A stretch of DNA of 64,000 bases from a virus. Taxonomy: Duplodnaviria > Caudoviricetes. The position numbers were made by a program, and so were the translations under genes. Where the stretch lies: the IMG/VR virus record IMGVR_UViG_3300008108_003798; one strand, given 5' to 3'. The notes beneath the pieces were generated by a model that was not told where the DNA came from, made no database searches, and saw only the letters and a list, made by a program, of their open reading frames with translations. This document shows, piece by piece, positions 862 through 52,063 of the stretch (the stretch's first letter is position 1; each line of letters opens with the position of its first letter).

Positions 862-870
862 GTTTGTATA

Positions 871-1098
871 TCAAACCTCTCGGTTTGCTTGTGCTTTTTT
901 ATAGCGGCGCTTTGCGGCTTCTTTTGCTTTGCGACGCTTGGTGCCTTTGCTTTCAAAGGCTTCGCGATTACGGAGTTCTTGAAAAATGCCATCATCGGCT
1001 AATTTCTTTTTAAGTTTACGCAATGCTTTTGAAATATCATTGCCATAGACCTCAACTCGAAATCCTTTTGCACTGTCAGTAGATTGATGTTTACTCAT
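871..1098 (-). CDS. rpsU: phage-encoded ribosomal protein bS21
   Basis: VEVYGNDISKALRKLKKKL...GIFQELRNREAFESKGTKRRKAKEAAKRR, the S21 pattern. Confidence 0.9.
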   Translation of the reverse strand: MSKHQSTDSAKGFRVEVYGNDISKALRKLKKKLADDGIFQELRNREAFESKGTKRRKAKEAAKRRYKKAQANREV

Positions 1099-1480
1099 TA
1101 TTTCCTCTGTTTAAAACTGTTTCTAACCAAGACAAATCGTAAATTCTGTTCTTGCTTAATAAATTATATGGTGTAATATTGTCACTTGTCAAGTAAAAAG
1201 TATTTGGCTGTGCAATAATATAAGATGCGAATTCGTATGTAAATGGTTCTGTACTATCTAAATCTAGAACAACTACATCACATCTTTTAACCTGTGCCAA
1301 TAACCATTCAATATCGTGATCGGCTTTTAATTCGTATAAAAACAAATTAACTGGTTCTACAGCGTTTATTAAAATGTTGTTGAGTATAGATTTAAGTTCA
1401 TCTCTAGGATGTATTACTAATATTGATAATACATCATTGTATAACACATCCGGAGGTGTAATTACAGTAATTTCATTCAT
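1091..1480 (-). CDS. hypothetical protein
   Basis: 129-aa ORF tightly overlapping its neighbours. Confidence 0.75.
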   Translation of the reverse strand: MNEITVITPPDVLYNDVLSILVIHPRDELKSILNNILINAVEPVNLFLYELKADHDIEWLLAQVKRCDVVVLDLDSTEPFTYEFASYIIAQPNTFYLTSDNITPYNLLSKNRIYDLSWLETVLNRGNNE

Positions 1481-3242
1481 CTTTGTTTCTTATTTTACGC
1501 CAGATGCTGTTTTCACTTTGCTCGGAGTTTTGAGAATACCCTTCCCAAGGTAGACTATCTATCTCACCATTTATATATGCTTCTTTAAACTCTTTGATGG
1601 TCAAGTCTGGATGATCTTGTTTCCACTGTATCTTGGCAAGTTTAGTGTCTGCTTGATTTTCAATAGCAACTAGTTCGTCTATTCGCTTTTGTCTATCTGC
1701 ATCAATTGGTACTTCACTCGATTCCAATCCTGCATCATCTTCAATTGCGGTGGTAGCAGGGTCTTCTGCACGAAGTTCTCCCAGGCCTGCATCTGCATCA
1801 GCGTTAATTTTCTGTATAGGTCCATCATCGATTAGTCCTCCGTTTTGAGATCTTGTTCCAGACATGGTATCATCCGTCTCAGATCCTTTATCGTCGGTGC
1901 TGGCGTTCTCTGAGGTGGTGCTGGCAGTACTATCGCTTGTTGTACTGGCTGCGGGTGTTTTACTATCTGATTGTTCATTATCAGGTCTATCAGATACATC
2001 ATTGTTTACATCCTTGTTTGTATCAACACTGTTTTGCCGAAGAGACTCCTTGCGAAGTTCTCTTTGAAAATTAAATGTGTGCTGACTTGCAATTAGAAGT
2101 AACACAGCCAATGGATCAAACACAAAAATAATTAAAATAATTACCCAACGGACTGCTTCTTCTAAAAGATCTTTATCTTCAGATTTGCCGTATACAAATT
2201 CTGCAAGATACTTGATAGGACCTACTTCTGCTTCTAGTTTTCTATATTCAGACTCAAGTCCATATTTCTGTTCTGTTAAGGCAGATACAACAGTTTCAGC
2301 CTCGACAATAATCTTATTTTGTTTTTCTACTTGAGCAGCAACTTTTGCTTCGTCGGTTACACCTAGTTGCTGTCTAAGTCTGTTGATTAATTCGTTGGAG
2401 TTTGCAATCTCTGTTTCGGCTAAACTGCGTAGTCTTTGAATCTCTGCTCGAGCAGTATCAATTACAGGTGATGATAGTTTACTGCTTTCTTGTGCAATTA
2501 ATTCTGCTAGACGTTGTTTTTCAGCAGTCTGTGCAGTTCTGTATGAGTCAATTGCTTGTGTAGTTGCAGGACCTAATTGACCATCTGCACGAACACCTAC
2601 CAATGCTTGTAATGCTTTGATGTTGTCAGTTGCAATGTATTGTTCTATGCTTTGTAGATTGCCAGTGATTGTGTTTAGTTGGTCTTCATACAAAGATAGT
2701 CCACCGCCAAGGCGTTGTTCTTCTTTGGTGATAATAACGTTTTGTTCATCAATTGCTGGTTGAATACGAGTGTATGCACTGTCGATACGTTCTTGTTCTT
2801 TGTCAATCTGTGCTTGTATTTCTGTGTCGCGATCTGTGCCGGCTACTTCAAGTTGTTCGATTTCTTGCTCTGCCTTGGCAATGACGTCTTGTTGTCTAAG
2901 TATTTGACTGTCTATCTGTTCTAATCTTGCTAGACCGTCTTTGGCACTGGCAGTTTGATCGATGTGTGCTTTGGACAAAAATCCAAAAATACCCATCGAT
3001 GTGATCAACATCAGAACAGCAACAGATATGGTTAGATAAGTTTTTAACCACCATACTGCATGTTCCCAATAATAGTGTAACCACACTACGGTAACTAATT
3101 TTGCTATTTCAAGTATACTGCCCATTATGATGATAGGCACTGCTGCCGCAGCAAATATTGCTACGAGACCTGCAACAGAATAGTATATTGCAACAGCACT
3201 GATACTCAATGCTGTTAGCATTGTAAGAATTCCTAAACCCAT
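1473..3242 (-). CDS. membrane-anchored coiled-coil protein with an embedded peptidoglycan-binding-like motif
   Basis: N-terminal TM helices, long coiled coil, IKALQALVGVRADGQLGPATTQAI motif, a further TM helix and an acidic tail. Confidence 0.7.
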   Translation of the reverse strand: MGLGILTMLTALSISAVAIYYSVAGLVAIFAAAAVPIIIMGSILEIAKLVTVVWLHYYWEHAVWWLKTYLTISVAVLMLITSMGIFGFLSKAHIDQTASAKDGLARLEQIDSQILRQQDVIAKAEQEIEQLEVAGTDRDTEIQAQIDKEQERIDSAYTRIQPAIDEQNVIITKEEQRLGGGLSLYEDQLNTITGNLQSIEQYIATDNIKALQALVGVRADGQLGPATTQAIDSYRTAQTAEKQRLAELIAQESSKLSSPVIDTARAEIQRLRSLAETEIANSNELINRLRQQLGVTDEAKVAAQVEKQNKIIVEAETVVSALTEQKYGLESEYRKLEAEVGPIKYLAEFVYGKSEDKDLLEEAVRWVIILIIFVFDPLAVLLLIASQHTFNFQRELRKESLRQNSVDTNKDVNNDVSDRPDNEQSDSKTPAASTTSDSTASTTSENASTDDKGSETDDTMSGTRSQNGGLIDDGPIQKINADADAGLGELRAEDPATTAIEDDAGLESSEVPIDADRQKRIDELVAIENQADTKLAKIQWKQDHPDLTIKEFKEAYINGEIDSLPWEGYSQNSEQSENSIWRKIRNKDE

Positions 3243-3282
3243 GTAATATTTATCCTACCATTTTTAGCAATATAGCAGTAGA

Positions 3283-3696
3283 TTAATTTCTACGCATTTG
3301 TGCAATATCTGTTGCATCTTGTTTCTTGTCTGCAAAGATAGGAACCATATTGCTTTTATGCATTGTAGCGACACCAAGCAGTTGACGTTCTCCGCTATAA
3401 ACCATAGGTTCTTTAGCAGGCCCGTGACCTGCTACACGATCGCTGGTCATTCTAGGACCAGTTGAATAATCAGGAATATCGTAAATGCCTACACGTTGAC
3501 CTTTTTTGTCCACAGGCAATTTTGCTTTGCCTACACCCATTTTCTTAAGCCACGTTTCATGATCTGCTTTTGCGGCTTCTAACTTTTTACTGTTAGAAGT
3601 CTTCTTCTTTGAATTGTATTTTGTAGTAGTAAGGTATGGTCCCACAAGGTGCATACTCATAGAAAGGCTCCATAGTTGATACAAATACTGTAACAC
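3283..3696 (-). CDS. conserved phage hypothetical protein
   Basis: LLGVATMHKSNMVPIF motif recognised from large myophage proteins. Confidence 0.7.
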   Translation of the reverse strand: MLQYLYQLWSLSMSMHLVGPYLTTTKYNSKKKTSNSKKLEAAKADHETWLKKMGVGKAKLPVDKKGQRVGIYDIPDYSTGPRMTSDRVAGHGPAKEPMVYSGERQLLGVATMHKSNMVPIFADKKQDATDIAQMRRN

Positions 3697-3716
3697 ATAT
3701 GGAGCCCGATGTCAAC

Positions 3717-3974
3717 TTAAGATTGAAACTTCTTTGGAGAACCCCAATAGTCAAATGCTTTGACTTTGATAAATCGCTTGTTAGTTTCGTTCTTGTTTGG
3801 ATTTTCGATAGTAAGAACTACATTCTTGTTCTTTTTCCAGGCCTGTAATTGATTTATTACACGCTCGCTAGATGCAAGATACTCGCTTCTTAACTGATTT
3901 GTAATTCTTGCTGAAACATTGCTGTGAAGTCCTTGAGATGTAAAACCCGAACTCTTTCCGCCTTTTTTGGCCAT
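3717..3974 (-). CDS. basic hypothetical protein
   Basis: 85-aa ORF with RBS (GGAGGA) and an ATAAATA motif upstream. Confidence 0.7.
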   Translation of the reverse strand: MAKKGGKSSGFTSQGLHSNVSARITNQLRSEYLASSERVINQLQAWKKNKNVVLTIENPNKNETNKRFIKVKAFDYWGSPKKFQS

Positions 3975-4067
3975 TGCCGATCCTCCATTATGTAGGTATT
4001 TATTGAATACAAAAAAAAAAGGGTTCTATTTTATAGGACCCTTTTTGACTTTGTATTTTAGCGTAGA

Positions 4068-4859
4068 TTAGAAGTTAAATGATACGCCAATTGCAGGAGT
4101 AGTTTCTTCAGTGTCTAGATTGTAACCAACTTCAGCAAATGCACTTAGGCTATCCTTGGTGTAGACAACGCCAGCACCGATGTTCTGTGCCATGTCGGTT
4201 TCGTCACCGTTGATGAAAGCAGAAACGTCTAGTGCGTCCATTGCACCGTAAGTACCCATTGCTTCATAAGCAAATTCATCAGCATAAGTAACAGTTACGT
4301 TAGCATAAAGTGCTTCGCTAACATCAACACCAGTTGCTACTGCAACAGTAGTGTCCTCGGTGTCAAGATTGTAGTCAAGTGCTCCGGCTACATCAATCTT
4401 ACCGTAGTCGTTGCTATAAGCAATCTGAACGTTTTCAATGTCGCCTACATTGGTGCTGATGTCAGTTAAACCAACAAGAACTTCAACTGCACCGTGGCTA
4501 ACAATCACACTCTCGTGATCGTCTGCTGGATCAGCAAGAGTATCGCCGCCAACAACTTCTAAGCCGCCAAAGCCAAACAAGTCGCCTTGATCGCCAAAAC
4601 TAACACTAGTGCCGCCAAATGCTACACCAACATGCCACGAGTCAACAACAAGATCGCTGCCGTCTGCTTCTACGCCAACAGCGCCAAATGCAGTTGCGCC
4701 TTCGGCTTTGTGACCAAATGACAATTCAACAGTTGGAGTTGCAACAAAATTGCCAGCAACGTTTTTGGTGAATTCAGCGCCAACAGTGCCGCCAAAATCA
4801 GCAGCAAATGCAGCACCAGCAAATGCAATGGCTGCAACAGTAGTAAGTAATAGTTTCAT
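4068..4859 (-). CDS. outer-membrane porin (Rhodobacter-type)
   Basis: Signal peptide (AFAGAAFA/ADF), alternating beta-strand pattern, acidic loops, C-terminal Phe (GVSFNF). Confidence 0.8.
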   Translation of the reverse strand: MKLLLTTVAAIAFAGAAFAADFGGTVGAEFTKNVAGNFVATPTVELSFGHKAEGATAFGAVGVEADGSDLVVDSWHVGVAFGGTSVSFGDQGDLFGFGGLEVVGGDTLADPADDHESVIVSHGAVEVLVGLTDISTNVGDIENVQIAYSNDYGKIDVAGALDYNLDTEDTTVAVATGVDVSEALYANVTVTYADEFAYEAMGTYGAMDALDVSAFINGDETDMAQNIGAGVVYTKDSLSAFAEVGYNLDTEETTPAIGVSFNF

Positions 4860-5008
4860 AAAGTTTTTCCCTTTGTTATTATAATGGCAAATTTCTTGCT
4901 CATTCGTAATATTAGTTATAACAGATATTCTGTAAAATACAACTAGTTTGAACAGATATCTAGGGTTTTTTGAAAATGCTTTTTAAATGTGTGTTCAATG
5001 TGCAACAG

Positions 5009-5212
5009 TTACATAACACCTTGCATTTTTTCAATTACTGGTACCAGTCTTTCAAGTATGACAGTAATCAGTATGAATGCAAGTAAACCAAATAAAACCC
5101 AATTTTTCTTTTTGCTTTGACTCAGCAGTGCCATAGCAATGATTTCATTGCCCAACAGTCTTAGGCTGATTTCAAATTTTTCTTCTGGTGCTGGGTTATC
5201 GTTGTCGTCCAT
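5009..5212 (-). CDS. small membrane protein
   Basis: 67 aa with one hydrophobic helix. Confidence 0.6.
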   Translation of the reverse strand: MDDNDNPAPEEKFEISLRLLGNEIIAMALLSQSKKKNWVLFGLLAFILITVILERLVPVIEKMQGVM

Positions 5213-5216
5213 ACAA

Positions 5217-5372
5217 CTATTTAGTTTTACGACGAGTGTTTTTCTTTGGCTGTTCCACTGTTGGCTTTAGAGTGACGTGACGTTCTTTATATCTTCCACA
5301 ACGACCTTTGCCTACATAGTAGGGAGTGCCATCTTCTCGCAGGTATTCGTAAACATAGTAATCTGTGTGCAT
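5217..5372 (-). pseudogene. truncated GIY-YIG-like homing endonuclease N-terminus (51 aa)
   Basis: Manual translation MHTDYYVYEYLREDGTPYYVGKGRCGRYKERH..., followed by an early stop. Confidence 0.6.
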
Positions 5373-5386
5373 AATAGTATTTATGA

Positions 5387-5790
5387 GGAGATTCTGTTGC
5401 TACGCTCTCCCCGGGCGCCCTGTAGTTATGCTGCTAGAGCAAACTCAGAAGGTGCAAAATTTTCATTTGCAGTTGTCATTTTCTTCGCGGTAACGGCGCT
5501 TAGATCCCGGTGACTCCATCCTGCCTAGTTCGTTGATCGATCCTATGTCAGGCCCATCATAAAAATACTGCGATTAATCCTAATACTAAAACAAATATAA
5601 TACTTACATTACCCCAAAAGATCTGTTCTTGCTCAGTCGGTACCTGTTCATCACAGTACTTTTTCCAATCAAGATCTTCGCTTCTGTCTTTACTCTCATC
5701 GTAATATACATACATCATCAGTCTTCTTATGGTGGACCTGCCGGGTGCCGCCCCCGGGTCTCATCCGTGTTCAGTGAACTTCAACATCAC
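5387..5790 (-). ncRNA. ssrA: circularly permuted two-piece tmRNA (acceptor piece ~5730-5790, coding piece ~5387-5555)
   Basis: T-arm plus acceptor end ACCCGGGGGCGGCACCCGGCAGGTCCACCA lies upstream of the 5' end GGGCCTGACATAGGATCG. They form a 7-bp acceptor stem with G3:U70. Tag frame ANENFAPSEFALAA* at 5426-5470. Confidence 0.93.
5557..5718 (-). CDS. 53-aa single-TM protein encoded inside the tmRNA intervening segment
   Basis: MMYVYYDESKDRSEDLDWKKYCDEQVPTEQEQIFWGNVSIIFVLVLGLIAVFL*; fills 162 of the 174 nt of the intervening segment. Confidence 0.65.
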   Translation of the reverse strand: MMYVYYDESKDRSEDLDWKKYCDEQVPTEQEQIFWGNVSIIFVLVLGLIAVFL

Positions 5791-5794
5791 AAGT

Positions 5795-5802
5795 TATTTA
5801 TA
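5795..5802 (-). promoter_or_regulatory. T4-like late promoter motif TATAAATA upstream of ssrA
   Basis: Exact TATAAATA. Related (A/C)TAAATA motifs precede many minus-strand genes (near 4000, 8960, 10260, 21350, 22580, 39208, 41625, 47350). Confidence 0.6.
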
Positions 5803-5850
5803 TGCTAAAACAGTCAACCAGTCAAGAACTTTTTTGTGTATGCTTGTTCG

Positions 5851-8730
5851 TCATTTCGCTGCTGCAATACGACGTGAGAGAGTGGCTTGAGCGTTGTATT
5901 CCTCTTGCCATTTCGACGGGCCGTTGGAGGGCGACACCTGAACTGCCGTAACCTTGTATTCTGGACAGTTGGTAGCCCAATCGCTGAAATCGGTGGTGAT
6001 AACATTGGCTTGGGTGTCGGGGTGGTGGAAGGTGGTGTAGACCACGCCCGGATTGACTTTGTCGGTCAGTGTTGCTCGCAGGGTGGTTTCCCCGGCACGT
6101 GAGGCCAGACGCACCCAATCACCCTCTTTGACACCGCGCACTTCAGCATCGTGGGGATGGATTTCCAACAAATCTTCAGTATGCCATATACTGTTCGCTG
6201 TGCGGCGTGTTTGGGCGCCCACGTTGTACTGCGACAGGATACGGCCCGTGGTGAGTAGCAGCGGGAAACGCGGGCCAGTGCGTTCATCAGTGGCAATATA
6301 TTCGGTGTTGATGAACCGACCTTTGCCACGCACGAAGGCATCGACGTGCATCAAAGGCGTGCCTTCAGGCGCTTTTTCGTTGCAGGGCCACTGGACCGAG
6401 CCCATCTCTTCGATCTTGTCATAGCTGACACCGGCGAAGGACGGCGTGGTCATGGCAATCTCTTCCATGATCTGCACCGGGTGGGTGTAGTTCCAGTTGG
6501 CACCCATTGCGTTAGCGAACAACTGGGTGACTTCCCAATCGGCATAACCCGGCTTCGGAGCCATTACCTTGCGTACCATGTTGATGCGGCGCTCAGTGTT
6601 GGTAAAGGTGCCGTCCTTTTCCAAGAAACTCGATCCAGGGAAGAACACATGGGCGTAGTTTGCGGTCTCGTTCAGGAACAGGTCATGCACGATCACGCAT
6701 TCCATCGCTGCCAGACCTGCCGCAACGTGCTTGGTGTCCGGGTCAGATTGCAGGATGTCTTCGCCTTGGCAGTACAACCCCTTGAAGGTGCCCTCCACGG
6801 CGGCATCCAGCATGTTGGGGATACGCAGGCCCGGCTCATTATCGATCTTCACGCCCCAGAGGTTTTCATAGATTGCCCGTACATCGTCGTTCTTCACATG
6901 GCGGTAACCCGGCAGTTCGTGCGGGAAGGATCCCATGTCGCACGAGCCTTGCACGTTGTTTTGGCCACGCAGCGGGTTCACACCCACGCCCGGACGGCCA
7001 ATGTTGCCGGTCATCATCGCCAAGTTTGCAATGCCGATCACGGTGGTCGAGCCTTGCGAATGTTCCGTCACGCCCAGACCGTAGTAGATCGAGCCGTTGC
7101 CGCCGGTGGCATAGGTGCGGGCCGCGGCGCGGACATCCTCGGCCTTGACGCCGGTTAGGATTTCCACCGCTTCGGGCGAATGGTTCGGGCGGCTGACAAA
7201 CTCGGCATAGTCTTGGAATTCATCCCAGTCGCAGCGGGTGCGGATGAACTCTTCGTTGTAGAGCTTTTCGGTCACGATCACATGCGCCAGTGCGGTGACC
7301 ATGGCCACGTTGGTGCCTGGTGTAAGTGCAAGGTGATGTACTGCTTTGATATGCGGGCTTACTACAATTTCAGTGCGGCGAGGGTCAATGACTATCAGTT
7401 TCGCTCCTTTACGCAGGCGTTTTTTTAGACGGCTTGCAAAGACCGGGTGACCTACAGCAGGATTGGCTCCAATCACAATGGCCACATCTGTATATTCTAC
7501 CGAATCAAAGTCTTGCGTTCCAGCACTGGTACCAAGAGTCTGACCCAAGCCATAACCGGTGGGCGAATGGCAGACGCGGGCGCAGGTGTCAGTGTTGTTG
7601 TTCAGGAACACTGCTCGAGTCAGTTTCTGCACCAGATAGGTTTCTTCATTGGTGCAGCGCGACGAGGTGATCACACCCACGGACTTTTGCCCGTATTTGG
7701 AAATTATGCCCTTCATGCGGTTCGCGGCGAATTCCATCGCCTCGGCCCACGAGACTTCTTTCCACGGGTCGTTGATGCTGTCGCGGATCATCGGCGACAG
7801 GATGCGGTCTTGGTGGGAGGCATAGCCATAGGCAAAGCGGCCCTTGACGCAGGAATGGCCACGGTTGGCCTTGCCGTGCTTGTAAGGGACCATCCGCACC
7901 AGCTCGTCGCCGCGCAGTTCAGCTTTAAACTGGCAACCCACACCGCAATAGGCGCAGGTGGTGATGACAGAGCGTTCCGGTGTGCCGATTTCGATGATCG
8001 ACTTTTCCTGCAAGGTCGCTGTCGGGCAGGCTTGTACGCAGGCACCGCAGGACACGCAATCCGAGGCCAGCGCATCATCGGTTTTTGCACCGAACGACAC
8101 ACGGCTGTCAAAGCCTCGACCTTCGATGGTCAGCGCAAAGGTGCCCTGCACCTCTTCACAAGCCCGCACACAGCGCGAGCAGACGATGCATTTCGCCGGG
8201 TCATAGGTGAAGTAGGGGTTGCTCTCGTCCTTGGCTTTCCACTGCGGATTGGCCTCGCCAGAGTTGTTCTTGGCGCGGAAGTGGGTGTCGATCGCCTCAT
8301 AGCGCACATCGCGCAGGCCGACGGCACCAGCCATGTCCTGCAACTCGCAATCGCCATTGGCCGAGCAGGTCAGGCAGTCCAGCGGGTGGTCCGAGATATA
8401 CAACTCCATTACGCCGCGACGCAGTTGTTTCAGATTGCCGGTTTGGGTTTTCACCCGGATGCCGGGGGCAACGGGCGTGGTGCAAGAGGCGGGCGTGCCA
8501 TTGCGGCCTTCGATTTCCACAAGGCACAGGCGGCAGGAGCCAAAGGCCTCAAGGTTGTCGGTCGCGCACAGCTTTGGCACTGTGATGCCAATCTCGGCGG
8601 CGGCTCGCATTATGCTGGTGTCTTTGGGCACGGTCACATCGAACCCGTCGATGTTCAGGGTCACCGTAGCGGTCGAACGCACATAGGGCGTGCCAAAATC
8701 GCGGTCCGAGGGAATAATGAAGTCTTTCAT
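5851..8730 (-). CDS. fdsA: NAD-dependent formate dehydrogenase alpha subunit (Mo-bisPGD, Fe-S), 959 aa
   Basis: Start MKDFIIPSDRDFGTP; 2Fe-2S motif GSCRLCLVE..ASC; HPLDCLTC; CIVCSRCVRAC; CVSCGACVQACP; CAYCGVGC; active-site TCARVCHSP; PLRGQNNVQG. Confidence 0.93.
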   Translation of the reverse strand: MKDFIIPSDRDFGTPYVRSTATVTLNIDGFDVTVPKDTSIMRAAAEIGITVPKLCATDNLEAFGSCRLCLVEIEGRNGTPASCTTPVAPGIRVKTQTGNLKQLRRGVMELYISDHPLDCLTCSANGDCELQDMAGAVGLRDVRYEAIDTHFRAKNNSGEANPQWKAKDESNPYFTYDPAKCIVCSRCVRACEEVQGTFALTIEGRGFDSRVSFGAKTDDALASDCVSCGACVQACPTATLQEKSIIEIGTPERSVITTCAYCGVGCQFKAELRGDELVRMVPYKHGKANRGHSCVKGRFAYGYASHQDRILSPMIRDSINDPWKEVSWAEAMEFAANRMKGIISKYGQKSVGVITSSRCTNEETYLVQKLTRAVFLNNNTDTCARVCHSPTGYGLGQTLGTSAGTQDFDSVEYTDVAIVIGANPAVGHPVFASRLKKRLRKGAKLIVIDPRRTEIVVSPHIKAVHHLALTPGTNVAMVTALAHVIVTEKLYNEEFIRTRCDWDEFQDYAEFVSRPNHSPEAVEILTGVKAEDVRAAARTYATGGNGSIYYGLGVTEHSQGSTTVIGIANLAMMTGNIGRPGVGVNPLRGQNNVQGSCDMGSFPHELPGYRHVKNDDVRAIYENLWGVKIDNEPGLRIPNMLDAAVEGTFKGLYCQGEDILQSDPDTKHVAAGLAAMECVIVHDLFLNETANYAHVFFPGSSFLEKDGTFTNTERRINMVRKVMAPKPGYADWEVTQLFANAMGANWNYTHPVQIMEEIAMTTPSFAGVSYDKIEEMGSVQWPCNEKAPEGTPLMHVDAFVRGKGRFINTEYIATDERTGPRFPLLLTTGRILSQYNVGAQTRRTANSIWHTEDLLEIHPHDAEVRGVKEGDWVRLASRAGETTLRATLTDKVNPGVVYTTFHHPDTQANVITTDFSDWATNCPEYKVTAVQVSPSNGPSKWQEEYNAQATLSRRIAAAK

Positions 8731-8761
8731 TCGGCGGCGTCCATCTGGGCTATTTGAGTGC

Positions 8762-8953
8762 TTACCATGTTTTTTTGCTCCATGCTTCTTCGAACCCGTC
8801 TTCGTGAACAACGTTTTCATGATTACCCCAGATACGTTCAAAGTAACCGTTGTACACACTCATGATGTCTTTTTCACTCCATGCATCTGGAATCAGGTGT
8901 CCTTTGACAATCCAATAATATCTATTGGCTTCTTTGTGTTCGTATGCTGTCAC
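8762..8953 (-). CDS. hypothetical protein
   Basis: 63-aa ORF downstream of an ATAAATA motif. Confidence 0.65.
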   Translation of the reverse strand: MTAYEHKEANRYYWIVKGHLIPDAWSEKDIMSVYNGYFERIWGNHENVVHEDGFEEAWSKKTW

Positions 8954-8967
8954 AGAGTATTTATTTT

Positions 8968-9177
8968 TTAATTCCCAAAAGAGTAGCAGGATTCAAGATC
9001 CACCCACTCATCTTCCATTTCTAGGCTTTCGGTGTAATCATAAACACCAATGCCTTTTAACCGTAGGTATGTAATGTCAATGGGTCGCATCAATACAGGA
9101 AGGGCGATTTCTCTGCAAGGATTGCTAATTTTGATTGGCCAGTCCACATCTACTAGATGTGCTTTAACTTTCGTCAT
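8968..9177 (-). CDS. hypothetical protein
   Basis: Start at MTKVKAH, overlapping the stop of the upstream gene. Confidence 0.5.
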   Translation of the reverse strand: MTKVKAHLVDVDWPIKISNPCREIALPVLMRPIDITYLRLKGIGVYDYTESLEMEDEWVDLESCYSFGN

Positions 9178-9358
9178 CGCTGACTTCAACTTCAACTTCA
9201 ATTTCAACATCTTCAACAACGACCTTTTTTTTCTTTCTGCCGTAGAATCCAGAAGTATATTCAATTTCTTCTGTTCTTTCACCTGTTGAACAAACTTTAA
9301 CTTTGCCGCCTCGGTTGAGAAACTCCTCAATTAGTTCCTTTGGAGTATTATGGTGCAT
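9164..9358 (-). CDS. hypothetical protein
   Basis: IEEFLNRGGKVKVC motif common in phage small proteins. Confidence 0.65.
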   Translation of the reverse strand: MHHNTPKELIEEFLNRGGKVKVCSTGERTEEIEYTSGFYGRKKKKVVVEDVEIEVEVEVSDDES

Positions 9359-9587
9359 ACGACCGATTGTGTTCATTGTCAAACCTTTCTAAAATTTCTG
9401 TGACGTGTTTGCATTTTCCATAGAAAGTAAATCCAGTGCAACTGCACTCGAATCCGTTTTCAGTAACTGTAATGGAATATGTGTTGTTTTTGCTGCCTTT
9501 GGCAGTCCATTCTAAACCAAGCAGCAAAGAGTTTTTAAACGGTCCCCAACCTTCGGGCTTGTAGTAGCGTTTAGAAAACTTTTTCAT
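9348..9587 (-). CDS. SWIM zinc-finger protein
   Basis: YSITVTENGFECSCTGFTFYGKCKH (CxC...CxH). Confidence 0.8.
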   Translation of the reverse strand: MKKFSKRYYKPEGWGPFKNSLLLGLEWTAKGSKNNTYSITVTENGFECSCTGFTFYGKCKHVTEILERFDNEHNRSYAP

Positions 9588-9634
9588 TGCTTGCTCCGTG
9601 TTGCTATTGAGTTATAGCATACAATAGATATCTG

Positions 9635-9967
9635 TCAAGTGTTTTTTCTGGAACGTTCCACCATGATGTCTAGAATTTCTTCAAGAGTCAAGTGATGCTG
9701 TTCCGGGTGCAGTCGCATTATTGTATTGCTAAATTCAGCATCGTCCTTGGCAATTAAACCAAAATTTACCAGCAGGTTTTCTTCTGTTAAATCATCGTTT
9801 AATTGATGTGCAGCCCAAATTGCAGACATTAACAGTACGTTAACTGATAGATCCTTACTGTTGATTTTATTATTGAGCAAGTATGAAATTGCTTTTTTTC
9901 TTACATTATAATAAAACGTTACCTTACGTGCAATTCCGTAAAGGTAATCAATGTTTTCTTTGTCCAT
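9635..9967 (-). CDS. hypothetical protein
   Basis: ORF track, operon context. Confidence 0.7.
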   Translation of the reverse strand: MDKENIDYLYGIARKVTFYYNVRKKAISYLLNNKINSKDLSVNVLLMSAIWAAHQLNDDLTEENLLVNFGLIAKDDAEFSNTIMRLHPEQHHLTLEEILDIMVERSRKNT

Positions 9968-10242
9968 TAAATCCTCGATTTGGGCATAAAAAAGTATAGC
10001 AAACTACCGCCAGGATTTACTGCCAATTTTAATTCTTCAGTGCGGAAATAGTCAATGCTGTGTCCAGTACGTTTCACGGTCCACATATCGCTGACTTTTT
10101 GATTCTGCACCATAATACTGGGTAGGTTGCGTTCAAAGGAAATTGCACGATAACGCAACACTTTGCCGTCAAATTGAGTGGGCTCAACTCCGTATTCAAC
10201 TTGAATATATTTTTTTAAATCGTTAAGTGTATCCATCGTCAT
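9967..10242 (-). CDS. hypothetical protein
   Basis: ORF track, operon context. Confidence 0.65.
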   Translation of the reverse strand: MTMDTLNDLKKYIQVEYGVEPTQFDGKVLRYRAISFERNLPSIMVQNQKVSDMWTVKRTGHSIDYFRTEELKLAVNPGGSLLYFFMPKSRI

Positions 10243-10262
10243 TTACCTCTATAGTGTATTTA

Positions 10263-10442
10263 TTATAGGTCAGTTTTCTTTTCTTGTATCTCTTTGCGAC
10301 GTTGAATGATTAGATCCTTCATTTCGTGTAGTGCTTGTCTTGCTCGAACAGCACTCGCCTTTACACCTTTTTGCTCGAACTTTTCAGTTTCCTGCAAATA
10401 GATAGCAAAGGCAAGTTTTAACTGTTCGTGCGTGTCACTCAC
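10263..10442 (-). CDS. histone H1-like (Hc1-type) small basic protein, 59 aa
   Basis: GTG start; EKFEQKGVKASAVRARQALHEMKDLIIQRRKEIQEKK. Confidence 0.65.
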   Translation of the reverse strand: MSDTHEQLKLAFAIYLQETEKFEQKGVKASAVRARQALHEMKDLIIQRRKEIQEKKTDL

Positions 10443-11004
10443 CGAGAATTACCTCACATACTTCTTGCCAGTTGTTTACGCGAACAACCGCTGGGTTTTG
10501 ATACCATTGATTGTGTGGATGATCAATAAGGATTGGACGGTGACCGTATTTCAAACCAGTGTCGCAGTTTTCTGGTTTGTCTTCGATCCACCAATGTCCC
10601 TGCTCGTACTTGTCTAAGGCGTCATCTTTGTCTGCACCAGTATCAAGGCAGATGAGATCGTCAAACGCAGCACTGCCGATAGTACGGTTAAGGTTGATCC
10701 AACGCAGTTCTTTGGCATATGGATCGAGGCTCAAACTGGTAATTACGTCAAAGCGGTAGCCCTCTGCAAACAATCGAGCAACACCTGTGTCTGCATCTCG
10801 CAGCACTGGCAAGCAACACATCCAAGCACTTTCGTTGAATTCACGTACAACGTCATGCTTGTCTTCTTTGGGGATACCGTATGCTTCAGCAAGGTTGTAG
10901 ATACCGTGCTTGATCTTGGTATAGCCTTTTTTAATCATCCACTCGTGGAATGGACCTTCCCAGTCCAGCAACACGCCGTCACAGTCCGTTAGAATCTTTT
11001 TCAT
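10435..11004 (-). CDS. HAD-family 5'(3')-deoxyribonucleotidase
   Basis: ILTDCDGVLLDW (DxD) and WIEDKPENC motifs. Confidence 0.85.
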   Translation of the reverse strand: MKKILTDCDGVLLDWEGPFHEWMIKKGYTKIKHGIYNLAEAYGIPKEDKHDVVREFNESAWMCCLPVLRDADTGVARLFAEGYRFDVITSLSLDPYAKELRWINLNRTIGSAAFDDLICLDTGADKDDALDKYEQGHWWIEDKPENCDTGLKYGHRPILIDHPHNQWYQNPAVVRVNNWQEVCEVILGE

Positions 11005-11052
11005 GTTTCACCTTTGTTTCACAACTTACTATAGCAGTAACTTTAAGGTTTG

Positions 11053-11343
11053 TCAACCAACCTTGACCGTAGACTGACCTGTTACAACTGTAGTTGCTCC
11101 ACATTTACGTAAATCACCATTTCGGTGTACAGGTGCACCGTAACAAAAAACAGTTCCGGATCCTTCGGCAGTGTCAGTTGGTGGCACAGGATGTAAGAAG
11201 CCATCTGGTTCTGCTGTGCTTTCGTGTACTATAATAGGTTTACCGTTTATTTTAACAGTTTGCGGACTAGAATCTCCGTCGGCATTTAACTCGCCGCCGC
11301 CGTGTGAATTTTGATCTCCTTCGACTGCCCACAACTCTGCCAT
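11053..11343 (-). CDS. PAAR tail-spike tip protein
   Basis: GDQNSHGGG...TVKINGKP...HP...GSGTVF...VHRNGDLRKCGA. Confidence 0.85.
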   Translation of the reverse strand: MAELWAVEGDQNSHGGGELNADGDSSPQTVKINGKPIIVHESTAEPDGFLHPVPPTDTAEGSGTVFCYGAPVHRNGDLRKCGATTVVTGQSTVKVG

Positions 11344-11352
11344 AATAACTCC

Positions 11353-11658
11353 TTATATCATCTTAATGCCGCTGGTACTGCTGATATACTGCTTGGCCAT
11401 TTCGCTGTCAGTCTTAGCAATAAAGATCACTGCATTTTTGTTAATCTCGATCTTGGAATCTGGATTAACTGTAAATGTGTAAGGACCTAGACCCAGTCCT
11501 TGCTGTGTTGCCATAATTGCCAATGGCTTGGACACCACATAGGTATTTGTTTTGGTTTCAACAAGTCTAGCAATCAGTTCATCGCCGTTGAATGTTTTAA
11601 TAGTAACGGTATCGCCGTCCTTCATTGGTGCTTCAATAAGCATTAATCGTTTCTCCAC
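11353..11658 (-). CDS. conserved hypothetical protein (SH3/Sm-like beta fold suspected)
   Basis: GDTVTIKTFNGDELIARL pattern. Confidence 0.65.
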   Translation of the reverse strand: MEKRLMLIEAPMKDGDTVTIKTFNGDELIARLVETKTNTYVVSKPLAIMATQQGLGLGPYTFTVNPDSKIEINKNAVIFIAKTDSEMAKQYISSTSGIKMI

Positions 11659-11894
11659 ATGTCATGATCTTCAAAGTATTTTTCCAGTGCGTCTGATCCG
11701 CCAATGTAATTTCCATGTAGGAAAATTTGTGGAACAGTTCTAGCATTAGGTGCTGCTTCTAACAACTGTTCCTTGGTCCAAGGCCCAGCAGTAATATTTC
11801 TTTCTTCGTAGCGTATACCTTTACCATCAAGCATACGCTTTGCTTTAACGCAATAGGGGCAGTTGTCCTTGCTCCATACAATAGTTTCGCTCAT
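11643..11894 (-). CDS. glutaredoxin
   Basis: CPYC active site; TVPQIFLHGNYIGG. Confidence 0.93.
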   Translation of the reverse strand: MSETIVWSKDNCPYCVKAKRMLDGKGIRYEERNITAGPWTKEQLLEAAPNARTVPQIFLHGNYIGGSDALEKYFEDHDMWRND

Positions 11895-13021
11895 AATGAT
11901 AATCCTTTAAATGTATCTGTGCCTACATCCTGTTTGATAGCGCCCACAGTGTATGAACTGATCTCAGTTTCTTGTGGCGCAACTTGAACTTCCGAACCGG
12001 AAATCCATTTTTGTGTCCACGGCAATGGATTGTTCTTTACAGTGTAAGGGCTCTTGAGACCAACCATGTTCATACGCTTGGTAGCAATCCACTCGATGTA
12101 TTCAGTTAGCAGTTGAGTGTTGAGACCAATCATACTGCCACCTTTGAACAGATAGTCTGCCCAAGTTTTTTCTTGATCAACTGCATCAACAAACATCTTG
12201 ATAGAATCTGCTTCTGTTTCTTTTGCAATCTTGGCGTAATCAGGATCGTCTTTTTGCAATAGTTTTAGCAGCATCTGCGTTGATGCAAGATGCAGGTTCT
12301 CATCACGTGCAATAAATTTGATGATTTTAGCATTGCCTTCCATCTTCTTCAGTTCAGCAAATGCCCACGAACAAGCAAAACTAACATAGAAGCGAACACC
12401 TTCTAGAATGTTAACACTCATCAGTGCAAGCCATAGTTTCTTCTTTAGTTCGTACAACTCAACTGCAACTTCTTTACCGTTAACTGTGTGAGTGCCTGCG
12501 CCAAGCAAATTATACCAAGTTGCAAGTTCAATCAGTTCGTCATAATTTTTGCTGATATCTTCTGCACAATCGATAATTTCTTCAATGTCCATCATCTCGT
12601 CAAAGATCTTGCTCGGATTGGCATAGACGTTGCGAATGATGTGTGTATAACTGCGGCTGTGAATTGATTCAGAAAATGTCCAAGTCAGGATCCAGTTTTC
12701 AAGTTCTGGCAAACTTACAATAGGACTAAATGCTTCTACAGGAGCACGACCTTGTACACTATCAAGTAGAATTTGACGCTTTAGATTGCTGGTAAAAATA
12801 TGTTGTTCATGTGCTGTTAGAGCCTTGAAGTCTGTTGCGTCTTTGTAAACGTCGATCTCTTCAGGACGCCAAAAGAAACCAAGTTGTTTATCAGTGAGTT
12901 GATCAAACTGTTTGTACTTCAGCGTGTCATAACGCTGGATAGTAGGACCACCTGTTGGGTCGAGAAATGCCATTACCTGTGTATGATCTGCACGGTTTTC
13001 TAAATCAAATACGCTGCTCAT
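11891..13021 (-). CDS. nrdB: class Ia ribonucleotide reductase beta subunit
   Basis: FFWRPEEID, ESIHSRSY, LEGVRFYVSF, RDENLH, QVAPQETEISSY. Confidence 0.96.
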   Translation of the reverse strand: MSSVFDLENRADHTQVMAFLDPTGGPTIQRYDTLKYKQFDQLTDKQLGFFWRPEEIDVYKDATDFKALTAHEQHIFTSNLKRQILLDSVQGRAPVEAFSPIVSLPELENWILTWTFSESIHSRSYTHIIRNVYANPSKIFDEMMDIEEIIDCAEDISKNYDELIELATWYNLLGAGTHTVNGKEVAVELYELKKKLWLALMSVNILEGVRFYVSFACSWAFAELKKMEGNAKIIKFIARDENLHLASTQMLLKLLQKDDPDYAKIAKETEADSIKMFVDAVDQEKTWADYLFKGGSMIGLNTQLLTEYIEWIATKRMNMVGLKSPYTVKNNPLPWTQKWISGSEVQVAPQETEISSYTVGAIKQDVGTDTFKGLSL

Positions 13022-17465: not shown

Positions 17466-18149
17466 TTATTTAGCGTACTTTTCGTAATAGGAGTATACTC
17501 GATCCCACCATCGGTTTGACCACTCGTCAAACTCGTCCGGCCACAAGTCAAATTGCAAATACTGCTCGTCTCTGGTACACATGAACACATGACCTTCACG
17601 TATATTAGTCCCGTGTATTTCGTTGTGAGCAAGTGCATATGCCGTCATTTGAAGATAGTAGTCTTCAATCCACTCTTTCTTCTTAACTTTGTTGCTTTGT
17701 TTAAAGTCCATAATACAGGCATTGCCTTTGTATACACCAACCAAGTCAGTTGTTCCTGCATACAAACTTGGCATGTACAGAGGCACTTCGCTGCCCCATA
17801 TTTCAGTTACATCATCCAGTGCATGAACTCGTATACGAGTAGCCATTGCGTGTGCTTTTTGTGCATACGGATTTGTTCCTGCCGATGGCCACTCACCTGT
17901 AGCAATATAGTCTTCGAGATACTTGTGCATACGAGTTCCTACGCCCGCAGCCTCTGTGGTAATTTCTTTTGCTTTGGTCTCACCTACCCGTTTGCGCCAT
18001 TCAATCAAGTGTGTTTGATCTTTGGTTTCGCCAAGGATAGTAGTAACGCTGGCAACAGCACTACCGTCAGGAGTCAAGTATCTTCGTTTGCCTTCTACTT
18101 CTGTTCTAGGAATCTTTGTGTATTCAAACTTATTAACTATTAGTGTCAC
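17466..18149 (-). CDS. PD-(D/E)XK exonuclease
   Basis: SVTTILGET, GTRMH, YAGTTDLVG, IMDFKQS, QMTAYA motifs; GTG start inferred. Confidence 0.85.
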   Translation of the reverse strand: MTLIVNKFEYTKIPRTEVEGKRRYLTPDGSAVASVTTILGETKDQTHLIEWRKRVGETKAKEITTEAAGVGTRMHKYLEDYIATGEWPSAGTNPYAQKAHAMATRIRVHALDDVTEIWGSEVPLYMPSLYAGTTDLVGVYKGNACIMDFKQSNKVKKKEWIEDYYLQMTAYALAHNEIHGTNIREGHVFMCTRDEQYLQFDLWPDEFDEWSNRWWDRVYSYYEKYAK

Positions 18150-18480
18150 TATCAGATCCCCAGTTAGTGACTTCGGCAATGTCTTCGTCGTAATACGGGC
18201 TCATCATATAAGGAGCAACATTGCTATATGGGTCGTCGAAACCTTCTATTTCATTTACTTCTGGGACTAGATTGGTTAATAGATTTTTAATACCAAATTG
18301 AAGTGTTGCTGTGCTACCTGAGCAACCAGAACATGCACCACTCATTTCTAGTTTCACTCGGCCGTTGTCGTACTCTACAAAACGAACTTCGCCGCCGTGT
18401 TGTTCCACATATGGTTGTACATACTCATTTAAAATTTGTTTGATGTTTTCACTAATTACTTCTTTTGTTCTTTCAGTCAT
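18133..18480 (-). CDS. NfuA/NifU C-terminal domain Fe-S carrier
   Basis: VQPYVEQHGGEV...MSGACSGCSGSTATLQFGIKNLL (CxxC). Confidence 0.9.
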   Translation of the reverse strand: MTERTKEVISENIKQILNEYVQPYVEQHGGEVRFVEYDNGRVKLEMSGACSGCSGSTATLQFGIKNLLTNLVPEVNEIEGFDDPYSNVAPYMMSPYYDEDIAEVTNWGSDSDTNS

Positions 18481-39183: not shown

Positions 39184-39213
39184 GTTAAAATCTCTGCATA
39201 TTTAATGTATTTA

Positions 39214-41298
39214 TTAGACTACACCGCCAGCATCAATACTGGTAATTCCGCCATAATTACTGTCAGGTTCGCCGCCATCTAGATTTCCAAATGACGCACC
39301 AGTTCCGGACGCAGTACTAGATATAACCAATGCTTTAGGATTACTGCTGGTATCAGTTGTAAGAACAATATTATTGCCTGCAACAATTTCTAAAGTATCT
39401 AAACCTATAGCAATTAAATCTTCTTCACCATCTACTTTGATAGTTTTGAAGGTGCTGTTCATACCTATTTTAACTGAGCCTGATCCTAGATCTGTTACAT
39501 CAAACCCGCTATCAGTGTCAAAGCGTATAGCCTCGACATTGAGGACAGTAATCTCTCCTATGTTGTTGTCGCTGTCAATCGTACCTACTGTTACAGTAGC
39601 ACCACTACCAGCATCACCTTTGCTACCTACAAAGCCAGTATTACCAGGTATGCCTTGACTTCCTACAAAGCCAGTATCACCTTTGCTTCCGGTATAGCCT
39701 ATTTCTCCATAACTACCTGTATATCCAGTAGAGCCAGTGTAGCCGACACTTCCAGTGAATCCAGTATCACCAAGGCTACCTGTATACCCAATTTCGCCTC
39801 GACTTCCTACGAAGCCAACACTGCCAGTGAATCCAGTATCACCAAGGCTACCAGTGAATCCTATGTCTCCCTGCGATCCAGTATAACCAACGTCACCTCG
39901 ACTACCGGTGTATCCTTGAATTCCTCTACTGCCGGTGTATCCTAATATTCGACCAACATTATTCCAGAGTTCTCCGTCATATACCCATAGGTTGCCACTG
40001 GCCTGATCAATAACACCATTACTGATTTGTGCATTAGGAAATGCAGAGTTTATTATATCTTGAGCGCTGCCTGCACTGGTATTTGCTACGCTCCCTATGA
40101 TAGAAACACTTTTACCGTCAGCACCAGTATCGCCTTTACTACCAGTGAATCCAACGTCACCTTGACTACCGGTATATCCTTGACTGCCAACAAAGCCATT
40201 ACTACCTGTAAAGCCTTGTGAGCCAACAAATCCTATATCTCCTTTGCTTCCAGTATAGCCTATTTCTCCATAACTACCTGTATATCCAGTAGAGCCAGTG
40301 TAACCTATATCACCAATAGAACCAGTGTAACCCATGTCACCTTGACTGCCAGTAAAACCTACTGAACCAGTATAACCCGTGTCACCCTGTGAACCAGTAA
40401 ATCCTTTACTACCTACAAAGCCAGTATCACCTTTGCTACCAGTATAACCAATATCGCCTTGACTTCCAGTGTAGCCAATATCACCTTGACTTCCAGTATA
40501 ACCAATATCGCCTTGACTGCCAGTGTAGCCAGTATCACCTTGACTGCCAGTATAACCAATATCGCCTTGACTACCTGCAAAGCCAACATCACCTCTGCTA
40601 CCCACAAAGCCAGTATCGCCTTGACTTCCGGTATAACCAATATCACCTTGACTTCCAGTATAACCAATATCACCTCGACTACCTACAAAGCCAGTATCAC
40701 CTTTGCTACCAGTATAACCAATCAACCCCTGGCTACCAGTGTATCCAATAGAACCAGTGTAACCTAGGTCACCTTGACTGCCAGTGAATCCTGTGTCACC
40801 TCGTGATCCAACGAAACCTCTACTGCCTGTGTATCCTTGTGGACCTCTAATTGGTCCTACGTTTTCCCATTCAGACCCTTTCCACACATGCAATTCACTG
40901 GCAATTAAATAACTATCGCCTATAGTTGCTGTTTGTGGAAGTTGATTAACATTATTAAAACTGCCTAGAATATTAATGTTTGAGCCACTACCAACACCAT
41001 CGTTGTCTATGCCTATCACACTGATTTTAATAGTGCCGCTGGGCAAAACTTCTAATGCAAAATTGTCTGTGTCAAAAGCAAGAGTTCCGGTGAATACACT
41101 GTTATCGACTGTGCCTGCTGTGTAATTTTGTACTCTTAAAGAATTTAGCAGGTTACCGCCAGGTGTAACGCCGTCAGAAATTACTATTACTCGTAGATCA
41201 GAACTGTAAAATAACTCTCCTTGGTCGCCAAGAAAAGTTTCTATTTCGGCAGTAGGTTTATAACCGGAAGTGATTTTGAAAAGGCCCGGTAAGGACAT
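39214..41298 (-). CDS. collagen-like (Gly-X-Y) fibre protein
   Basis: Long G[FY][TV]GS[QKR]GD repeats; C-terminal LDGGEP..IDAGG. Confidence 0.8.
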   Translation of the reverse strand: MSLPGLFKITSGYKPTAEIETFLGDQGELFYSSDLRVIVISDGVTPGGNLLNSLRVQNYTAGTVDNSVFTGTLAFDTDNFALEVLPSGTIKISVIGIDNDGVGSGSNINILGSFNNVNQLPQTATIGDSYLIASELHVWKGSEWENVGPIRGPQGYTGSRGFVGSRGDTGFTGSQGDLGYTGSIGYTGSQGLIGYTGSKGDTGFVGSRGDIGYTGSQGDIGYTGSQGDTGFVGSRGDVGFAGSQGDIGYTGSQGDTGYTGSQGDIGYTGSQGDIGYTGSQGDIGYTGSKGDTGFVGSKGFTGSQGDTGYTGSVGFTGSQGDMGYTGSIGDIGYTGSTGYTGSYGEIGYTGSKGDIGFVGSQGFTGSNGFVGSQGYTGSQGDVGFTGSKGDTGADGKSVSIIGSVANTSAGSAQDIINSAFPNAQISNGVIDQASGNLWVYDGELWNNVGRILGYTGSRGIQGYTGSRGDVGYTGSQGDIGFTGSLGDTGFTGSVGFVGSRGEIGYTGSLGDTGFTGSVGYTGSTGYTGSYGEIGYTGSKGDTGFVGSQGIPGNTGFVGSKGDAGSGATVTVGTIDSDNNIGEITVLNVEAIRFDTDSGFDVTDLGSGSVKIGMNSTFKTIKVDGEEDLIAIGLDTLEIVAGNNIVLTTDTSSNPKALVISSTASGTGASFGNLDGGEPDSNYGGITSIDAGGVV

Positions 41299-50542: not shown

Positions 50543-50974
50543 ATAGGTTCAGGGTTCGGCGACCCTCGCGTTCCCTACTCGGTGCGTGTCCGCACACCTT
50601 TCCTGGCCTCACTTACAGTATAACACATCTTGCCCCGAACGCAACCAGAAGTGATCTAACAAAATCAATGACTTACAAAATAAATTTTTTTTCTAAGTCG
50701 TTGAGATTGTTGGAGACTTTGTGCTTGCATATACGTGTAGACAGTGTATAACTAACACATAGAGGGACATACAAGAGGGAACACACAATGACATTCCATC
50801 AACAAGTAGCCAAGTTCGTAGCCAACAACCTCAACCGAGACGCAGACCGCTATGAACAGATCTGGAGCATCAAGAGCGCACTGCTCGCACACGGTTTTCT
50901 CAGCATAAACCGGTTGACAGTGCCCTGCTCATGTGCTATTGTATATGAGTAGGGCAACACAAGAGGGAACGAAG

Positions 50975-51259: not shown

Positions 51260-51325
51260 AAACTGGTTGACACGGCCAGCGGGTCGTGTTATAACTGTGA
51301 CATAGGGCAACACAACGAGGGCACG

Positions 51326-51517: not shown

Positions 51518-51589
51518 GAGGTTGACAGCACAGACTAGACGTGCTATAACTAACACATAGAGCAACACAGTGTAGAGGGAATATACACA

Positions 51590-52000: not shown

Positions 52001-52063
52001 TGGTTGACACAGCCCTGCTCATGTGCTATTGTATATGAGTAGGGCAACACAAGAGGGACTGAG

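Follow-up and report, generated by a model that had tools for sequence, protein, structure and literature searches.

How does a phage come to carry the catalytic subunit of a bacterial molybdoenzyme, and does it keep that gene for its own use? The question is raised by the IMG/VR virus record IMGVR_UViG_3300008108_003798 (Duplodnaviria; Caudoviricetes), of which we analyzed a stretch of 64,000 nucleotides (the window). The gene fdsA at 5851..8730 (minus strand, stop codon included) encodes the complete, 959-amino-acid catalytic alpha subunit of an NAD-dependent formate dehydrogenase that uses molybdenum bis-molybdopterin guanine dinucleotide (Mo-bisMGD). A preliminary description, made from the sequence alone, had taken fdsA for an auxiliary metabolic gene captured singly from a bacterial host; to this description we add the correction that the gene is on the minus strand. 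We found that fdsA is intact, that it truly belongs to the phage rather than being contaminating host DNA, and that it was donated by a Tabrizicola-related lineage of freshwater Paracoccaceae. We are close to certain that it is a selected phage gene.

Integrity and phage setting of fdsA

The phage gene encodes a full-length FdsA. The ORF (open reading frame) listing and translation put the start codon (ATG) at 8730 and the stop codon at 5851-5853. Pfam searches identified Fer2_4, NADH-G_4Fe-4S_3, a Fer4 dicluster (4Fe-4S), Molybdop_Fe4S4, Molybdopterin, and Molydop_binding, which together give the architecture of an FdsA: an N-terminal [2Fe-2S] and NuoG-type Fe-S module, a 2x[4Fe-4S] ferredoxin, Molybdop_Fe4S4, and the molybdopterin/MGD-binding domains. 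The NCBIfam equivalog for the alpha subunit (TIGR01591, Fdh-alpha) matched with 927 bits against a cut-off of 666, and the protein aligned end to end with FdsA of Rhodobacter capsulatus (PDB 6TGA chain A; E=0). Its length and domain order are those of FdsA in the known FdsABG(D) enzymes (R. capsulatus, PDB 6TGA/6TG9; Cupriavidus necator). The motifs RVCHSP and NPLRGQNNVQG are present at residues 385 and 585, respectively. The 6TGA alignment contained equivalents of R. capsulatus Cys386, His387, and Arg587, which we take to be the defining active-site residues. Compared to 120 host cluster representatives, the phage protein retained 574 of the 576 host-invariant columns and 26 of the 26 invariant cysteines. 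These results bear out the earlier reading of an intact protein with all of its Fe-S and molybdenum-site motifs, as well as the observation that the gene is richer in GC (57%) than its AT-rich phage flanks (36-46%, about 40%).

fdsA is part of a phage genome that has been recovered many times. The exact 959-amino-acid protein is on 20 public contigs from at least seven assemblies, the largest contig being 148.6 kb. Seven places listed for it, from JGI, ENA, NCBI, and Logan, all have the same phage neighbors. In the six for which there is DNA, as much as 18.7 kb matched the window at 100% identity, with one synonymous single-nucleotide polymorphism as the sole difference. Neighboring phage genes on the public contigs include nrdAB, glutaredoxin, PAAR, and, past the start of the window, bS21, IMPDH, HSP20, ClpS, heme oxygenase, and a ferredoxin-dependent (PcyX-like) bilin reductase. 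In addition, 14 DNA sequencing runs from at least 10 studies (lake, freshwater, 'fungus', and crustacean metagenomes, 2017-2024) contained 81-100% of the 31-mers of window positions 5300-9400.

The junctions between fdsA and the phage DNA were reproducible in independent data, for which we aligned contigs from three runs, none of them flagged as a possible source. Contigs from run X9 covered 5476-6051 and 8629-10846 with 0-1 mismatches, thereby bridging both junctions, and a contig from run X6 covered 8330-10846, also with 0-1 mismatches, bridging the upstream junction. The k-mer depth of the contigs was alike within and outside fdsA, although such depths are coarse. Both the bridged junctions and the recurrence across assemblies, which are close to checks proposed in the preliminary description, came out in favor of a gene that resides in a true phage genome and is bordered by phage genes to its left and right, as expected of an auxiliary metabolic gene. 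A megablast search of GenBank phages with window positions 5000-9800 gave no match, a tblastn search of GenBank phages with FdsA gave only mislabelled host fragments and distant paralogues, and a search of IMG/VR for the exact junction 39-mer gave no match.

Origin of fdsA and selection on the phage copy

fdsA was captured as a single gene from a host in the Rhodobacterales. The nearest protein (97% identical in amino acids and 91.3% in nucleotides) is on a 31-kb lake-metagenome contig from the Rhodobacteraceae (L001), and the next relatives are Rhodobacteraceae metagenome-assembled genomes (92-94%) and Tabrizicola, Cypionkella, and Rhodobacter sp. (86-88%). In a maximum-likelihood tree, the phage FdsA was sister to that of L001 (SH-aLRT 99) and nested deep within the freshwater Paracoccaceae, giving the gene a cellular origin with an identifiable donor lineage, as is typical of auxiliary metabolic genes. 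The operon on L001 is LysR-fdsG-fdsB-DUF4287-fdsA-fdhD-fdsD, bordered by gyrB, uvrC, and molybdate transport genes. The DUF4287 gene (70 amino acids; L001 9787-9999) lies between fdsB and fdsA there; in the other close hosts and in the remnant of fdsB in the phage (below), fdsB overlaps fdsA directly.

Of the host genes next to fdsA, only stubs were left. Nucleotide homology between the phage and the lake contig, as determined by blastn, is confined to window positions 8750 to about 5845. Upstream, the final six codons and stop codon of host fdsB remain at 8731..8750 (minus strand) and overlap the fdsA ATG, based on alignment with the host loci L001 and L002 and the blastn boundary at 8750. 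This remnant reads CAG ATG GAC GCC GCC GAA TGA (QMDAAE, stop); the terminus of host fdsB, QKEAAE and stop, likewise overlaps the fdsA ATG, and the region is CAGATGGACGCCGCCGAATGA in the phage compared to CAGAAGGAAGCCGCCGAATGA in the hosts. The piece of a neighboring host gene that had been seen here in the preliminary description is therefore the end of fdsB. Downstream (5837..5850, minus strand), the DNA still resembles the beginning of host fdhD/fdsC for at most about 14 nt before phage DNA follows (L001/L002 alignment; blastn boundary 5845), and similarity to the first fdhD codons is gone within about 6-15 nt of the fdsA stop. The earlier statement that phage sequence resumes here was correct, but the distance of ~50 nt given for it was too long.

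The phage copy has been under purifying selection while resident in the phage. We polarized the differences between the phage gene and that of L001 with eleven outgroups, which assigned 125 changes to the phage lineage and 36 to that of L001, making the phage branch 3.5 times longer. Most of the phage-branch changes (114/125, 91%) were from GC to AT, and 106 were synonymous compared to 19 that were non-synonymous. Among the GC-to-AT changes, 98 of 114 were synonymous, in contrast to the 36-42% expected from enumeration of every possible GC-to-AT mutation of fdsA (p<1e-22, a ratio of about 0.1); about 4-5% of these possible mutations would create stop codons. The ratio of non-synonymous to synonymous substitution rates (Nei-Gojobori dN/dS) was 0.057 for the phage versus L001 and 0.07 for host-host pairs, and overall omega was about 0.06-0.1. 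GC content at third codon positions (GC3) was 0.69 in the phage copy versus 0.78-0.88 in twelve host copies. The AT bias indicates that most of the changes arose within the AT-rich phage and, therefore, that the gene was kept functional there. The 106:19 split, the dN/dS of 0.057, and the AT bias thus support the view that fdsA behaves as an auxiliary metabolic gene under selection.

Divergence from the host was uneven along the gene. Between the phage and L001, the synonymous rate (dS) was 0.25-0.28 in codons 1-383 and 501-800, and 0.64-0.66 in codons 384-500 and 801-959. The first of the more divergent segments is a strongly AT-shifted patch at codons about 384-500 (7230..7680, minus strand), with a GC3 of 0.45-0.53 and a dS to the nearest host of 0.64. 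The second such segment, recognized by its dN/dS, is at codons 801-959 (window 5854-6330, minus strand). The number of differing codons per 50-codon bin was strongly over-dispersed for the phage versus L001 (chi-square p=2e-7), in contrast to a host-host pair (p=0.49). This pattern suggests a mosaic, in which an older, ameliorated phage allele may have been partly overwritten by recombination with host alleles. Such overwriting would place the phage in cells with an L001-like fdsA during its replication.

The insertion site and neighboring phage genes

The insertion site is a variable junction in this group of phages. Its downstream edge is the gene for a two-piece (alpha-type) transfer-messenger RNA (tmRNA) of the phage at 5382..5829 (minus strand; Rfam RF01849, 95.6 bits), with a strong promoter, TTGACT-17-TATAAA, at 5825-5797 whose -35 box begins 26 nt past the fdsA stop. 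The tmRNA is kept in the IMG/VR relatives L010, L011, L012, and L014 up to window position 5802. L010-L012 are 93-98% identical to the window up to this position and have unrelated genes beyond it, indicating that gene content varies at this spot and that the tmRNA promoter is a recombination boundary in the phage group.

A relative with an empty site shows what was inserted. L014 is syntenic with window positions 870-12754, and its homologue (54% identical in amino acids) of a conserved 120-amino-acid phage gene at 8968..9330 (minus strand) marks the upstream edge of the site. In place of the DNA between the two edges, L014 has about 70-120 nt containing a terminator-like hairpin and the tmRNA promoter; these same flanks with a short spacer are the empty site. 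In the window, this space is occupied by fdsA and by an orphan, Trp-rich ORF of 63 codons (ORF63; 8762..8953, minus strand) that is in the ORF list and was called in public assemblies. ORF63 had no homologue in related phage loci or NCBIfam and is absent from L014, indicating that it arrived with or near the fdsA insertion. We also considered an in-frame N-terminal extension of FdsA (from ATG 8818 or GTG 8859) but preferred the overlapping ORF63 together with the host-type start at 8730.

The signals upstream of fdsA differ from those of the host gene. The host Shine-Dalgarno sequence AAGGAAG has decayed to ATGGACG ahead of the phage gene. Upstream of both ORF63 and fdsA is AATAAATAC (8957..8965, minus strand), which by its resemblance is a candidate T4-type late promoter; the host gene, in contrast, is in a LysR-controlled operon. 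Counting of this motif in the window gave four copies (3996-4004, 8957-8965, 10256-10264, and 39207-39215), all on the minus strand, versus a chance expectation of 0.77. Each copy is 3-24 nt upstream from the start of a minus-strand ORF, one of which is a tail-fibre gene starting at 39183.

The surrounding genes are those of a T4-type myovirus resembling the pelagimyophages. The window encodes a class Ia ribonucleotide reductase, collagen-like tail fibres, baseplate-like proteins, and a virion protein whose nearest relatives (57%) are from cyanomyophages. On public contigs, a CsgF-CsgG-FecR-CHASE2 cassette lies just before the start of the window, and such a CsgF/CsgG curli cassette is characteristic of pelagimyophages (Zaragoza-Solas et al. 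2020, PMC7029224). The phage combines this cassette with structural and replication genes of the T4 type. Precomputed Pfam labels on identical public contigs also identified glutaredoxin and the PAAR protein near nrdAB, a NifU-type Fe-S protein (window 18133-18480, minus strand), and a protein with an Hc1 (chlamydial histone-like) domain (about 10263-10442, minus strand). It is possible that the phage-encoded NifU-type protein supports maturation of FdsA.

One further region of the window has a high GC content. The block at 50900-57850 (52% GC) has short ORFs on both strands, of which only a bacterial PH domain protein and an AAA ATPase matched Pfam, and contains three tRNA genes (Leu-TAA, Met, and Arg-TCT) at 56137-56374. 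We ruled out that this block is further host DNA, as it is a run of small phage genes. An attempt to name the host by the phage tmRNA was uninformative: BLAST against 301 alphaproteobacterial genomes matched only the conserved core of ~30 nt.

Solitary fdsA in marine phages and the probable role of the phage subunit

No partner of FdsA was found in the phage. FdsG, FdsB, DUF4287, FdhD, and FdsD were all absent from the window and from the 4 kb beyond its start (tblastn, E>0.4), and gene calls of a further 13 kb contained no fds partners, for a total of about 81 kb of phage DNA; no search was aimed at genes for biosynthesis of the molybdenum cofactor (Moco). The preliminary description had reported that both partner and Moco genes were missing from the window; our searches bear this out for fdsG, fdsB, fdhD, and fdsD. 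The hosts have fdsGBA(C)D, so the phage lacks the operon context of the family, which is a feature of the genome and not of the protein. The phage gene thus differs from known FdsABG(D) systems in standing alone without fdsG, fdsB, fdsC, and fdsD, in its AT-shifted silent sites, and in the substitutions G37D and A712T. RNA sequencing runs were neutral with respect to transcription of the phage copy: run X16 contained fdsA pieces 5-10% divergent from the phage, from host relatives, and part of the tmRNA, and at most 0.24 of the words of the phage-specific patch were present in any RNA run.

Capture of the alpha subunit alone occurred at least twice in this phage group. An IMG/VR contig of 72 kb and 37% GC (G001, locus L003) is a distant relative of the window phage, with syntenic nrdA, nrdB, several structural genes, HSP20, and ClpS; by this synteny it is phage and not cellular DNA. 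It has a solitary fdsA (946 amino acids, 66% identical to that in the window) inside a curli/CHASE2 cassette. In three other contigs (G002, L110, and L131), a solitary fdsA is downstream of a gene for S-adenosylhomocysteine hydrolase, and the contigs also have a T4 gp32-type single-stranded DNA-binding protein and UvsX. In another (L132), it is downstream of CsgF-CsgG-FecR-curlin-CHASE2 and an RNase H-like gene. fdsB, fdsG, fdsC, and fdsD were not beside fdsA in any of the marine phage contexts checked (three neighborhoods). All of the marine phage proteins retained the catalytic motifs and the 26 cysteines.

In the tree, the marine phage proteins formed a monophyletic clade (six rows, support 100). 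Its sister is a group of marine cellular sequences, and both are distant from the Paracoccaceae to which the window gene belongs. Contexts of G001 and L110 were checked when the tree was built, and those of P0139/L132 and P0177/L131 afterwards. Based on the separate clades, we conclude that the marine and freshwater captures were convergent. The marine genes, about 66% identical to that in the window, come from a different, low-GC marine donor group, and the window fdsA is an independent and more recent capture from freshwater Paracoccaceae. FdsA of G001 had about 65 cluster representatives at 90-100% identity, to which the proteins of the other marine phage contigs above belong, followed by a gap to a group at 76%; the one member of that group that was checked is cellular (fdsA-fdhD-fdsD-rho, 34% GC). 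For the donor of the marine clade, the best match among 401 alphaproteobacterial genomes was about 70%, and ESM Atlas gave an assignment to phylum level only.

Several other genes near these marine copies are of interest in their own right. Directly upstream of fdsA in G001 is a gene for a 624-amino-acid pyrroloquinoline quinone-dependent dehydrogenase, similar to methanol/ethanol dehydrogenases (L003 8020-9894), and a few kb downstream, inside the curli/CHASE2 cassette, is a fused SoxY-SoxZ (L003 16101-16820). It is possible that the cassette is a gene set for both C1 oxidation and sulfur oxidation in one phage. In G002 (L109), L110, and L131, two radical-SAM enzymes, an NTP-transferase, and a GatZ-like protein are also encoded upstream of fdsA, and the gp32-type protein and UvsX are in G002. 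The IMG/VR contig L005 (8.8 kb, 53-58% GC) has a fragment of FdsA at its end (61% identity over residues 49-212) and may be cellular.

Our full-text searches of the literature on phage formate dehydrogenase yielded one directly relevant statement. Zaragoza-Solas et al. 2020 (mSystems, PMC7029224) devote one sentence to a formate dehydrogenase unique to one deep-ecotype pelagimyophage and speculate about energy generation. Their phage, like that in the window, is an aquatic T4-like myovirus with a CsgF/CsgG cassette and a formate dehydrogenase as a putative energy gene; the statement does not give the identity of the subunit, its origin, or an analysis of selection. The remaining matches were to a distant FdnH-like protein of a Citromicrobium phage and to an fwdH call in a digester virus. 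In none of the papers that these searches turned up were subunit identity, origin, selection, or recurrence analyzed. Hence, the earlier remark that large molybdoenzyme subunits are rarely reported in phages was right as to rarity, but they are not unprecedented, given the statement of Zaragoza-Solas et al. and the marine clade with solitary fdsA. The window fdsA adds to the known class of energy-metabolism auxiliary genes, with a brief precedent in the literature.

We believe that the phage most probably supplies a fresh catalytic subunit to the FdsBG(D) of its host, and that this subunit is matured with the help of FdhD and the Moco and Fe-S systems of the host; we consider this full mechanism somewhat more likely than not. 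The phage is a freshwater T4-like myovirus of the pelagimyophage/cyanomyophage-like group with a curli cassette, and its host would be an alphaproteobacterium. fdsA came to lie between a small phage ORF and the tmRNA promoter by illegitimate recombination with a chromosome from the Tabrizicola-related lake Paracoccaceae, and only 20 nt of fdsB and about 6-15 nt of fdhD were left beside it. Purifying selection then acted while silent sites drifted toward the AT-rich composition of the phage, and fdsA was probably patched several times by recombination with host alleles. In the infected cell, the phage would make apo-FdsA, which FdhD/FdsC and the cofactor machinery (Moco and Fe-S) of the host would mature and which would join host FdsB/FdsG(/FdsD), sustaining or raising the conversion of formate to CO2 and NADH as host expression declines. 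Boosting or replacing the host subunit in this way, as the preliminary description had also proposed, presupposes expression of the phage gene, assembly of its product with host partners, and a benefit to the phage, each of which we infer.

This mechanism would resemble that of cyanophage psbA, which replaces a catalytic subunit whose turnover is limiting. psbA and psbD, which encode core subunits of photosystem II, are likewise single, cofactor-rich catalytic subunits of a multi-subunit host energy complex, carried without their partners, and they share with fdsA purifying selection, signs of mosaic host-phage recombination, and presumed support of energy metabolism during infection. The differences are that formate oxidation takes the place of light and that the phage FdsA needs insertion of Mo-bisMGD and sulfuration by host FdhD.

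Several findings weigh against supply of a subunit by the phage. With no partner or maturation genes in the roughly 81 kb, activity of the phage protein depends entirely on a putative host that has FdsBG, FdhD, and Moco. The RNA runs had only host-like, 5-10% divergent pieces of fdsA, and the ribosome-binding site of host type upstream of the phage gene is degraded. Two residues that are invariant among the 120 host representatives are altered (G37D and A712T). The GC content of the phage (40%) is far below that of Paracoccaceae (60% or more), and an unsampled host lineage could account for part of what we assigned to the phage branch.

Alternatively, the alpha subunit might function alone. 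It would oxidize formate without the host diaphorase and use its Fe-S chain to hand the electrons on to acceptors of the ferredoxin type, or work in the CO2-reducing direction; such acceptors would feed the ferredoxin-dependent heme oxygenase, the PcyX-like bilin reductase, or other redox needs of the phage. We consider this unlikely. Only the alpha subunit was kept in both independent phage lineages, and the window phage encodes heme oxygenase, ferredoxin-dependent bilin reductase, NifU, and glutaredoxin nearby, all of which would fit with such a function. However, the protein is 97% identical to a canonical FdsABG alpha subunit and retains nearly all host-invariant columns, including those of the N-terminal NuoG-like module, and it therefore looks constrained to fit the usual partners. 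In addition, no dedicated acceptor gene adjoins fdsA, and we know of no activity of an alpha-only FdsA with a physiological acceptor.

It is a little less likely still that fdsA is a neutral or nearly neutral passenger, picked up recently and by accident without benefit to the phage. The allele is known from a single, nearly clonal phage genotype and is absent from close relatives, and both the decay of the ribosome-binding site and the missing partner subunits would be expected of a passenger. But it has diverged by about 4% of its nucleotides since separating from the closest host allele and has acquired zero stops or frameshifts, even though about one in 20 to 25 random GC-to-AT mutations would make a stop, and omega has stayed low (about 0.06-0.1). 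Every cofactor ligand was retained, the neighbors were trimmed precisely, and the same lone subunit was independently retained across a diversified clade of marine phages.

An assembly chimera, in which a 2.9-kb piece of host DNA was misjoined into a phage contig, might account for the sharp step in GC content (40% to 57%) exactly at the gene borders and for the co-occurrence in similar samples of a host with about 91% identical DNA, but it is extremely improbable given that the insert lies within the contig between stretches of phage DNA, that the junctions are identical in 20 contigs from differing assemblers and samples and were spanned in independent runs, and that the AT-biased set of 125 substitutions separates the phage copy, as a distinct allele, from every host allele.

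The subunit carried by the window phage matters because auxiliary metabolic genes reveal which host processes limit virus production. Few catalytic subunits seen in a phage are as large as FdsA (959 residues) or depend as much on maturation, since it holds five Fe-S clusters as well as a molybdenum cofactor. The locus is also a natural experiment, with datable capture junctions, clear AT amelioration, and a mosaic structure suggesting ongoing exchange of genes between phage and host. That the lone subunit was captured in two unrelated events, in fresh water and in the sea, argues for the importance of formate oxidation in infected alphaproteobacteria and related bacteria of surface waters. If the phage enzyme is functional, then viral infection would affect the turnover of formate and C1 compounds in both lakes and the ocean. 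More tentatively, aquatic T4-like phages may have repeatedly taken only the alpha subunit, kept it compatible with the host by recurrent gene conversion, and used it as a replaceable 'wear part' of the host complex or, more radically, as a stand-alone, formate-driven source of electrons for their own ferredoxin-dependent enzymes; we view this broader proposal as possible but doubtful. If it is true, viral infections in lakes and oceans would draw on formate as an energy currency that has so far gone unrecognized.

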